From NCBI GenBank assembly GCA_003605065.1, contig QZJM01000070.1, positions 6,382-70,381 on the forward strand: a DNA stretch of 64,000 nt, written 5' to 3'. The stretch's first letter is position 1. Each line of letters opens with the position of its first letter. The notes under the pieces are model-generated. The model did no database searches and was not told where the DNA came from. It saw only the letters and a list, made by a program, of their open reading frames with translations. This document shows, piece after piece, positions 6,138 through 46,951 of the stretch. The position numbers and the translations under genes were made by a program. The DNA is from Dethiobacter sp. Lineage in GTDB: Bacteria > Bacillota > Dethiobacteria > DTU022 > UBA8154.

Positions 6138-6252
6138 ATTTACCTTTTTATTATAAAGTACTTATTTTTAAACATACTAACAAAAGAAGCTGAGCTGAAC
6201 CTGGACTACGCTACTACAAACTTGTGCTATTTTCATACCAAAGGGTGTTTAA

Positions 6253-18187: not shown

Positions 18188-18277
18188 CCATGGGGACATT
18201 CCATGGGGACATTCCTCTGAAAGAGGTGTGTCCCCTTACCTCTTCGGTGTGTCCCCTTACCTCTTCTGGGCTTTTTT
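18188..18277 (+). repeat. Hairpin with both arms tandemly duplicated (13 bp x2 and 21 bp x2), terminator-like
   Basis: CCATGGGGACATT at 18188-18200 and 18201-18213; GGTGTGTCCCCTTACCTCTTC at 18225-18245 and 18246-18266; GGGGACA/TGTCCCC are complementary; T run follows. Confidence 0.9.
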
Positions 18278-20795: not shown

Positions 20796-20863
20796 AATAG
20801 TATTAAAACTTGTTTCCTCGCTTCACAAGTCACTCCGCCAACAGCAAAACGCTTAAGTCTATA

Positions 20864-20936
20864 GAACAATGGCGGGATCTAAACCCGGTCATTTTAATCC
20901 ATTGTTGTGACCCGTAGAGTCGTGGTGGTTAGATAA
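20864..20936 (+). repeat. Dispersed hairpin element, copy A
   Basis: Starts GAACAATGG, internal CCATTGTT complement, ends CATTGTTGTGACCCGTAGAGTCGTGGTGGTTAGATAA (31/37 identical to 46855-46891). Confidence 0.8.
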
Positions 20937-20956
20937 AAATGAGGTGGCGAAGGTTA

Positions 20957-33646: not shown

Positions 33647-33774
33647 TAAATTTATGTCACAGGGGTAAAATGATAGTTAATATGAAAATAGCGCAGCGTT
33701 TGCTGGTGGCGTAGTTCCGGGTTCAGCTGAAGCCAAGTTCTACTACTTTTGTGACCTGTAGGGAGGGGTAAAGG

Positions 33775-46760: not shown

Positions 46761-46785
46761 GAGTCTTTGGTAAAACTTGCAGACT

Positions 46786-46891
46786 GAACAATGGTAACTT
46801 TTCCACTCAGAGTGGGAAAGGAGCGTACCATGTTAAGTTTGGAACATTTACATACATCGTTGTGACCCGCAGGGTCGTGGTAATTAAATAA
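46786..46891 (+). repeat. Dispersed hairpin element, copy B
   Basis: Starts GAACAATGG; ends CATCGTTGTGACCCGCAGGGTCGTGGTAATTAAATAA; longer interior than copy A with TTTCCACTC/GAGTGGGAAA hairpin. Confidence 0.8.
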
Positions 46892-46951
46892 GCATAAGCA
46901 TTGTGAACCTGTTATGTGATAAAAAACAGACAGGTTTTTCTTTATTTAATG

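Follow-up and report, generated by a model that had tools for sequence, protein, structure and literature searches.

Two intergenic segments beside spoVAF and spoIVA in a Dethiobacter genome are probably relics of an ORF-less, folded mobile element of about 300 nt

The window analysed here is a 64,000-nt stretch of the Dethiobacter sp. assembly G000 (2.34 Mb, 79 contigs). It holds two look-alike segments: copy A lies in the spacer between a spoVAE-like gene and the GerA-family gene spoVAF, and copy B between gpsA and spoIVA. The initial annotation had reported that positions 20900-20936 and 46855-46891 are identical at 31 of 37 positions, and this was confirmed, with all six differences being transitions. 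The pattern TTGTGACCC-N3-GRGTCGTGG matches the window twice, against a chance expectation of 0.01. Both segments have a 52-nt 3' module in common, and R1, a covariance model of this module built from 49 family members, has exactly two matches in the window, at 20888-20939 in copy A (67 bits, E 3e-10) and at 46843-46894 in copy B (55.6 bits). The unit that had been described is therefore real, but the homologous stretch is longer and covers 20798-20936 in copy A and 46774-46891 in copy B. The features of the window that the text refers to are the following.

20798..20807, + strand: 5' stub of copy A, TAGTATTAAA; remnant of the element 5' end after an internal deletion
20808..20936, + strand: 3' part of copy A, subfamily 1, about model positions 176-303
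about 20837-20853, + strand: orphaned 3' strand of helix P1 in copy A, CGCCAACAGCAAAACGC
20873-20887, + strand: small hairpin of copy A, CGGG-ATCTAAA-CCCG
20890-20898, + strand: 3' strand of helix P0 in copy A, CATTTTAAT
20901..20929, + strand: terminal hairpin of copy A, ATTGTTGTGACCC GTA GAGTCGTGGTGGT; 13 pairs, including four consecutive G.U/U.G wobbles
20930-20935, + strand: end motif of copy A, TAGATA
46774..46891, + strand: copy B, the final ~115 nt of an element of subfamily 3; similar by blastn and nhmmer to other members of that subfamily, e.g. C28:12471-12584
46798-46821, + strand: hairpin of copy B, CTTTTCCACTC-AGA-GTGGGAAAGG
46845-46853, + strand: segment of copy B, CATTTACAT
46856-46884, + strand: terminal hairpin of copy B, ATCGTTGTGACCC GCA GGGTCGTGGTAAT, followed by the end motif TAAATA
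46906..46947, + strand: terminator-like hairpin with T-run, AACCTGTT...AACAGACAGGTTTTTCTTTATTT, separating copy B from spoIVA; lies outside the element
33676..33747 (to about 33765), + strand: third member, a mini-copy; the first ~70 nt of subfamily 1 fused to TTTTGTGACCTGTAGGG
6189..6243, - strand: small 5'-end fragment; blastn match to positions 1-57 of a G004 copy, 81% identity
6057-6095, + strand: further family fragment, from blastn of the element library against the window

Several details of the first description hold as well. In copy A, AACAATGG (20866-20873) is able to pair with CCATTGTT (20899-20906) around the CGGG/CCCG stem, and the outer four G.U/U.G pairs of the terminal hairpin are found in both copies. 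The 9-mer GAACAATGG, which had been taken as a common start of the two copies, does occur exactly twice in the window (20864 and 46786), but the two positions are not homologous. In copy B it belongs to the 3' strand of the closing helix of subfamily 3 (cf. ..AGCAACGGTAACTTTCC.. in other copies) and in copy A it lies downstream of the closing helix, so that the common 9-mer is a coincidence. Taken alone, the two relics are not unusually stable (z = -0.46 for copy A and -2.26 for copy B).

The mini-copy at 33676 matches profile positions 2-66 by nhmmer (C5:40060-40127) and positions 3-70 of copy L010 by blastn with 91.5% identity, and the TTTTGTGACCTGTAGGG to which it is fused represents the 5' half of the terminal hairpin. 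The AGGGG..ATG after it resembles the ribosome-binding site and start of the next gene, and the same mini-derivative arrangement is present on C26 in front of ychF. The window also contains a second repeat family, a small palindrome GGGGACATTCCTCTGAAAGAGGTGTGTCCCC at 18190-18265 (core 18205-18235), here with partial tandem duplications. This palindrome has about 30 hits in the genome, both strands counted, and is also nested within ~300-nt element copies, one such place being the terminal-hairpin loop.

Searches of the genome and its relatives by covariance model, pattern and BLAST returned dozens of further copies, in support of the dispersed, non-autonomous, structured element that had been proposed at the outset; the family has no match in Rfam 15. 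The fuzzy pattern CATTTTCATCCATTGTTGTGACC-N-GGTCRT finds at least 34 module copies in the whole G000 assembly, and R1 finds 25. Applied to 149 genomes of the class, R1 detected the module in 7, all belonging to one family, with 25 copies in G000, at least 39 in the sister genome G004, 20 in G007, which represents another genus, and 1-2 in the remaining positive genomes. Within the genus, BLAST identified at least 30 element bodies in G003, at least 30 in G004, 7 in G001, and 2 in G002, which has 0 covariance-model hits; in other genera of the family it found fewer copies, or partial ones. When 185,579 species genomes were scanned for the exact module, the matches came from essentially one MAG, JAGVAS01, which is G004, and plasmid and phage collections gave no element match. 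Rfam 15 returned only a tRNA for the window at the gathering threshold and only noise for both loci at E<=10, and cmscan of eight full-length copies at E<=1 gave no match, including to HEARO, the IS605-orfB motifs, group I introns, Intron_gpII, omega-like families, and TwoAYGGAY. Judged from these sequence searches, the family appears to be previously uncatalogued and limited to a few uncultured spore-forming bacteria. JAGVAS01 is labelled Desulfovibrio sp. DeMMO6_36, yet it is placed in the genus of the spore-former studied here and shares syntenic sporulation loci with it; the Desulfovibrio label is probably wrong. An identical 98-nt stretch of a subfamily-3 copy is found at contig ends (C36:1-98, the end of C40, and the start of C50). 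Since element copies coincide with contig ends, the element probably contributes to the fragmented assemblies of these MAGs.

Intact units are 295-330 nt long. All-against-all BLAST placed the homology at ~270 nt upstream and ~47 nt downstream of the module start, and no ORF was found within the element in the BLAST-delimited copies. They form at least four subfamilies, which have the two termini in common and differ in the body; copy A is a member of subfamily 1, and copy B of subfamily 3. In its simplest form, an intact element reads (TTARTA)TGAAAATGG ... CATTTTCAT-CC-(13-bp hairpin with four G.U pairs)-TTARTA. On the element strand, (T)TARTA-TGAAAATGG is followed by the 5' strand of the long helix P1 (e.g. 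GCGCAGCGTTTGCTGGTGGCG) and a body of ~170 nt that forms helices P2 to P5, one of its hairpins being CTGCTGGC-TTCCAT-GCCAGCAG. After the body, P1 is completed by its 3' strand (CGCCAACAGCAAAACGCTGCG), and a variable region follows in which a YCUAA loop is conserved. Next are CATTTTCAT, CC, the 13-bp terminal hairpin ATTGTTGTGACCC-GCA-GGGTCGTGGCGGT, and TARTA. The right end can be written as ...GTGACCCGCAGGGTCGTGGCGGTTAGTA and the left end as TGAAAATGG... Helix P0 is formed by the 5' end, ATGAAAAT, and the CATTTTCAT immediately before the terminal hairpin, a segment that complements ATGAAAATG of the 5' end. Within the conserved loop AUCUAAAC, CUAA is the complement of TTAG in the end motif. Between subfamilies the sequence of P1 is wholly different while its complementarity is kept, as in GGTGGCGCAAG / CTTGCGCCACC, CAGCGTGCAGGTA / TACCTGCA.CGCTG, and GGAAAGTTACCGTTGCTTTAG / CTAAAGCAACGGTAACTTTCC; chimeric copies with a broken P1 also exist, e.g. 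L027 and L030.

Two arrangements depart from this plan. In G003 (L011, L038, L039, L040), a subfamily-1 core without P0 and 3' module sits inside a subfamily-2-like element, and this composite of about 550 nt has itself been amplified (at least 30 BLAST hits). A single divergent copy from another genus, L013 (G006:C6), located between a ylmG/yggT-like gene and a ylmH-like one, departs from the others at its 3' end, where GTGACGCGGGTCGCGG...CCGCGATGCCGCCGTCAC forms the closing helix and the usual module is absent.

For analysis of the fold, 25 diverse full-length copies were taken from four genomes and aligned. In the 64-pair model, 90.4% of cells are paired, compared to 79.8% in column shuffles (0 of 500 reach the observed value) and about 40% with slid partners, changes on both sides occur in 33 of the 64 pairs, and the covariation score is 0.370 against 0.179; because the aligned copies are related by descent, these figures overstate independence. 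RNAalifold independently finds P1-P5 and the hairpin, with 27 of 45 pairs compensatory in at least one sequence. The multi-helix fold is clearly conserved despite the kinship of the sequences, and the compensatory changes in the body exceed the controls, as expected of a structured single-strand element in the generic sense.

The terminal hairpin is conserved in sequence and shows no significant covariation. Among the 49 family members, its wobble positions are UG in 42, UG in 44, GU in 48, and UG in 31 plus UA in 18, and the wobble pairs change to Watson-Crick pairs only. The four conserved G.U wobbles imply that the hairpin forms on one strand only, so that the strand-specific fold suggested by the initial annotation is supported for this part of the element. 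G.U and A.C cells stand at 91:3 in the hairpin and 81:46 in the body, which identifies the element strand as the folding strand, with a strong preference in the hairpin and a mild one in the body. The fold of a full copy has a z of -2.9 with RNA parameters and -3.8 with DNA parameters; the body folds about equally well on the opposite strand, and folding with DNA parameters gives P0 to P5 again. As P1 and P2 to P5 close the body, both ends are brought together beside the hairpin.

Comparison of locus A between genomes suggests how copy A was formed. Against the full-length profile, nhmmer aligns copy A to model positions 176-301 (C5:27188-27313). The same spoVAE/spoVAF spacer contains a full-length copy in G004 (L028), which begins TAGTATTAAATATAGCACAGCG, and is empty in G001 and G003, while in G000 a 10-nt 5' stub is joined directly to about model position 176. 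Copy A is thus an internal deletion derivative of the element and not a 5' truncation. AGGTGGCGAAGG, 3' of copy A, was considered as the 5' end of a new element and rejected, being the native ribosome-binding region of spoVAF.

At locus B, the 5' part of the element lies immediately after the gpsA stop codon in G004, and G001 and G003 have kept a ~47-nt 5' stub. Since the remnants in G004, G001/G003, and G000 differ, the insertion predates the split of these genomes and decayed differently in each. The terminator-like hairpin at 46906-46947 is conserved in G000, G001, G002, and G003; its long loop kept the consensus scanner from listing it. This hairpin lies downstream of gpsA, which places copy B in the 3' UTR of gpsA, upstream of the terminator-like hairpin of the gpsA operon and not in the spoIVA leader. 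Both copies are co-oriented with the downstream genes spoVAF and spoIVA, as had been pointed out, but the link to sporulation does not hold. For 38 genome hits, the orientation relative to the flanking genes is same/same in 13, opposite/opposite in 13, and mixed in 5 and 5, and no recurrent neighbouring gene family was found among the copies of the genome. Because orientation relative to the neighbours is random, the sporulation context is a coincidence, and we infer that the copies beside spoVAF and spoIVA have no dedicated regulatory role.

Orthologous sites are filled or empty in both directions between the sister genomes G000 and G004, and also in comparison to G001/G003; the empty-site comparison that had been proposed as a check is thus positive. 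C14 and C42 have the insert in G000 but not in G004; at L010, L098, L087, L080, and L084, it is present in G004, and the G000 site is empty or reduced. In the cleanest case (L098/C38), the 7 bp TAATATG flank the insert on both sides; the empty site GGTATAATATGTTC corresponds to the filled site GGTA[TAATATG]AGAAT...GGCGGT[TAATATG]TTC. Each of the four informative empty sites has one TTARTA-like sequence (ATAATA, TTAGTT, ATAGTA, and TCAAAG), and the four filled/empty comparisons are compatible either with insertion after TTART, in the way IS200/IS605 elements insert 3' of a specific tetra- or pentanucleotide without duplicating the target, or with a duplication of 5-7 bp. The TTARTA on both sides may have arisen by duplication of the target, may be the core of a recombination, or may be an end motif that the element carries and that mimics the target.

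Most copies have TTAGT/TTAAT as their 5' flank, and inverted repeats are absent. As the element sits at TTAGT/TTAAT-like sites, the motif is found on both of its sides. Junction logos show conservation starting at TTAGTATG and stopping at GGTTARTA; an apparent asymmetry in conservation within the two TTARTA copies turned out to be an artefact of hit selection. The 5' and 3' R in TTARTA are not significantly concordant (13 of 22), and the C/U of the YCUAA loop does not covary significantly with this R. Head-to-tail tandems occur, with about 9 of 56 intact 3' ends abutting a new 5' end, nested and mosaic copies are common, and deletion derivatives that retain both termini are present at C36:82-166 and at 33676-33765 of the window. 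The family is intergenic and inserted in either orientation, and 3'-truncated copies are about as frequent as 5'-truncated ones. No conserved promoter was found at the element 5' end. A candidate outward sigma-70 promoter in the 3' module (GTGACC-17-TAGTAT) was rejected, reaching 8/12 by hand count and thus falling below the scanner threshold of 9/12. Copies within a genome are 75-92% identical, and orthologous copies of G000 and G004 are about as similar as their flanks. Together with the lack of a partner gene, this suggests that the family is old and probably inactive now.

Membership in IS200/IS605, one of the identities considered at first, is not supported by the left end or by the gene content. 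The right end carries the hairpin GTGACCC-GCA-GGGTCGT about 10 nt from the end, and no hairpin resembling it was found in the first 60 nt of the left end, for which the best partner is the distant 3' strand of P1. IS200/IS605 transposition requires a left-end hairpin as well. No TnpB domain was detected in G000, whose Y1-domain genes comprise one decayed IS605 and three RAYT-like genes (C30, C35, and C46; frames of 231-341 aa), and the module is not present beside any of them. A REP-like nature, another early suggestion, is not supported either, as the unit is ~300 nt long and multi-helical and the RAYT-like genes are not flanked by the module. The ends do not fit a TIR-type MITE, which would have terminal inverted repeats and a target duplication of fixed length: TGAAAATGGCG... 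and ...GTCGTGGCGG are not inverted repeats, and the complementarity between ATGAAAATG and CATTTTCAT is internal on the 3' side, where another 45 nt come after it. Upstream of the decayed IS605 (C27 about 17520, L140), ATGAAAATAAGCGCAG matches the element 5' end at 16 of 17 positions. This IS605, a truncated tnpA with a tnpB start, is the sole IS605 remnant in G000. Since intact IS relatives do not have the 16/17-nt resemblance, ATGAAAATAAGCGCAG may be a stub or due to chance.

The other candidate partners were likewise rejected. R1 has no match at the TnpB, IscB, IS110, RT, and Y1 loci of G000 and its relatives, and the copies do not abut tnpA or tnpB, as no module was found at any such locus of these genomes. 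For a TnpB omega RNA, nhmmer and R1 find no module at 6 TnpB loci of relatives; for an IscB omega RNA, the sole IscB (G007) has its own unrelated upstream RNA and gives no module match. An IS110 bridge-RNA carrier was dismissed because the IS110 loci of G000, G003, and G004 show no similarity to the element; an intact IS110 gene is present in G000, only remnants in G004, and none in G007 despite its 20 modules. An RT partner was dismissed as well, since G000 has only an RT fragment and none was detected in G004, and the RT loci have no module. MAGs lose multicopy autonomous elements, and the absence of a mobilising enzyme is therefore weak evidence.

We favour, with moderate confidence, the interpretation that an ORF-less mobile element of ~300 nt, restricted to this lineage and recognised as a folded single strand, gave rise to the window copies, which are its inactive relics with internal deletions. 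In this scheme a trans factor would recognise the 3' module on the folded single strand and mobilise the element. If the ends were joined, a hypothetical circle junction would read GGCGGTTAGTA-TGAAAATGG. Among the mobile readings, a route through ssDNA, of the HUH or of the site-specific/short-core recombination type and analogous to that of the protein-less PATEs (PMC10055086), would take a little less than half of the weight. This preference is based on the subterminal hairpin ~10 nt from the end, the lack of inverted repeats, the tandems, the same short motif at the 5' flank and the 3' end, and the DNA-parameter fold with P0 to P5. The four consecutive G.T pairs count against it, since they make a weak stem in DNA and fit RNA better, as do the missing left-end hairpin and the conserved multi-helix body, which no ssDNA transposon is known to require as a whole. 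Further points against the favoured interpretation are the chimeric copies with a broken P1 and the similarly good fold of the body on the opposite strand. Roughly a third would go to an RNA-centred route, meaning either retroposition or a guide-type RNA with a trans enzyme; these shares within the mobile readings are separate from the stand-alone confidence in each of the rival explanations considered below.

The alternative that survives best, although unlikely, is an RNA-guided or RNA-dependent element in which the ~300-nt transcript would be the functional core, like the TnpB/IscB omega RNAs or the IS110/IS1111 bridge/seek RNAs. The nuclease or recombinase would be encoded elsewhere, and CATTTTCAT and the YCUAA loop would read the junction or target (ATGAAAATG, TTAG). 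Such RNAs typically have a complex, covarying fold of many helices, for which plain DNA repeats have no need, the G.U-rich hairpin stem favours RNA, and both the complementarity of CATTTTCAT to the 5' end and that of the loop CUAA to TTAG are consistent with a guide. In addition, G000 has an intact IS110-family gene, and PATE-like elements with omega RNAs that depend on TnpB in trans have been described (PMC10055086). However, the TnpB, IscB, and IS110 loci show no similarity to the element, and the enzyme genes do not track copy number, with no TnpB in G000, no IS110 in G007, and remnants in G004. It is also an argument against this explanation that the loop position (C/U) does not covary with the R of TTARTA and that Rfam has no omega-like match.

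A SINE-like retroposon is improbable. Here, the element would be transcribed, its conserved 3' hairpin would be read by an RT in trans, and target-primed copying into TTARTA-like sites would generate short duplications. Such a route would agree with the absence of terminal inverted repeats, the direct repeat of TTARTA on both sides (up to 7 bp in L098/C38), and the G.U-rich stem. It would also agree with the 3' module being the most conserved part, common to otherwise different subfamilies and genera, and with the many truncated copies and subfamily chimeras, which template switching predicts. Against it, 3' truncations are about as common as 5' truncations, copy A is internally deleted, the 5' end has no conserved promoter, and RT is represented by a fragment in G000 and was not detected in G004, with no module at the RT loci. 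No SINE/LINE-type system is known from bacteria. A protein-less, RNA-centred element, in which the folded ~300-nt transcript itself would specify or catalyse the joining of the ends and the integration at TTARTA sites, also has a low probability. CATTTTCAT and CUAA would then act as guides, and only a generic host or trans enzyme would be borrowed; if true, this would be a new class alongside the omega-RNA and bridge-RNA systems.

Even less probable is a host-domesticated repeat of the REP/BIME-REPIN type, spread and kept by a RAYT-like Y1 protein and serving as a transcript-end or nucleoid element. Three long Y1_Tnp-domain proteins are encoded in G000, and the repeat is intergenic, multicopy, hairpin-bearing, and vertically persistent, with the locus B insertion predating the split of the genomes. 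However, the RAYT-like genes are not flanked by it, the unit has tenfold the length of a REP without an inverted doublet or a GTAG-type head, and copy number differs sharply, from 2 BLAST and 0 covariance-model hits in G002 to at least 39 in G004. A cis-regulatory or trans-acting structured RNA tied to sporulation genes, suggested by the co-orientation of both window copies with spoVAF and spoIVA downstream, is effectively refuted here by the random orientation and unrelated neighbours across 38 hits, the empty spoVAE/spoVAF spacer in G001 and G003, the conserved terminator-like hairpin separating copy B from spoIVA, and the absence of the 5' half of the fold from both copies.

Small protein-less repeats are common in bacteria, but few of them combine a defined end module with covariation support for a large fold and with sites that are clearly filled in one sister genome and empty in another. 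With dozens of copies, at least four subfamilies, and nested mosaics, the family offers a compact, alignable case in which to study the recognition and movement of a non-coding element in the form of a folded single strand, and it lets one ask if an omega- or bridge-type RNA can persist without its protein. The element also accounts for several "conserved structured" intergenic segments in G000, which calls for caution before such segments are read as sporulation riboregulators.

Literature searches found no description of the element, and it lies outside the Rfam, IS200/IS605, REP/REPIN, TIR-MITE, omega RNA, and bridge RNA families as these are defined. REP and REPIN-RAYT repeats are palindromes of 20-40 nt, usually in inverted doublets, that flank a single-copy RAYT gene. 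The element shares with REP/BIME and REPIN-RAYT systems the intergenic hairpin repeats, the long vertical persistence, and the Y1/HUH-type genes in the genome (PMC3116915, PMC8266576), but differs in unit size and architecture, is without a REP doublet, and is not found beside the RAYT-like genes. Bridge/seek and omega RNAs are structured RNAs of 150-300 nt encoded at an element end, to which a transcript of the element would be comparable. IS110 elements may resemble it further, with one short core standing on either side after integration and with internal segments complementary to their own junction. Unlike these systems, the element has no recombinase or nuclease gene in cis, and the examined loci have no sequence in common with it.

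PATEs are protein-less derivatives of IS200/IS605, found for example in Geobacillus stearothermophilus (PMC10055086). The element resembles them in lacking both an ORF and terminal inverted repeats, in the subterminal hairpin, which lies about 10 nt before the 3' end, in a short conserved motif at the 5' flank and the 3' end (cf. TAM and TEM), and probably in its reliance on trans factors (PMC10055086). A structured RNA is possible in both, as is head-to-tail insertion if the TAM resembles the TEM (PMC10055086). In contrast to PATEs, the left hairpin is absent, the entire 300 nt form one closed covarying fold, the right flank is also weakly conserved, and no cognate TnpA/TnpB with the element ends was found in G000 or 148 relatives of the class. 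TwoAYGGAY RNA (RF01731) is a multicopy RNA with mobile-element-like expansion (bioRxiv 10.64898/2026.09.22.753630). The element matches it neither in sequence nor in structure, has no AYGGAY loops, and ends in another terminal module. Nevertheless, both are orphan, multicopy structured families of anaerobic Firmicutes with a long closing stem, flanking repeats, and extreme variation in copy number between related genomes (bioRxiv 10.64898/2026.09.22.753630). By analogy, the logic of the element would thus be nearest to that of PATEs, and the phenomenon appears to resemble the TwoAYGGAY type of multicopy structured RNAs.
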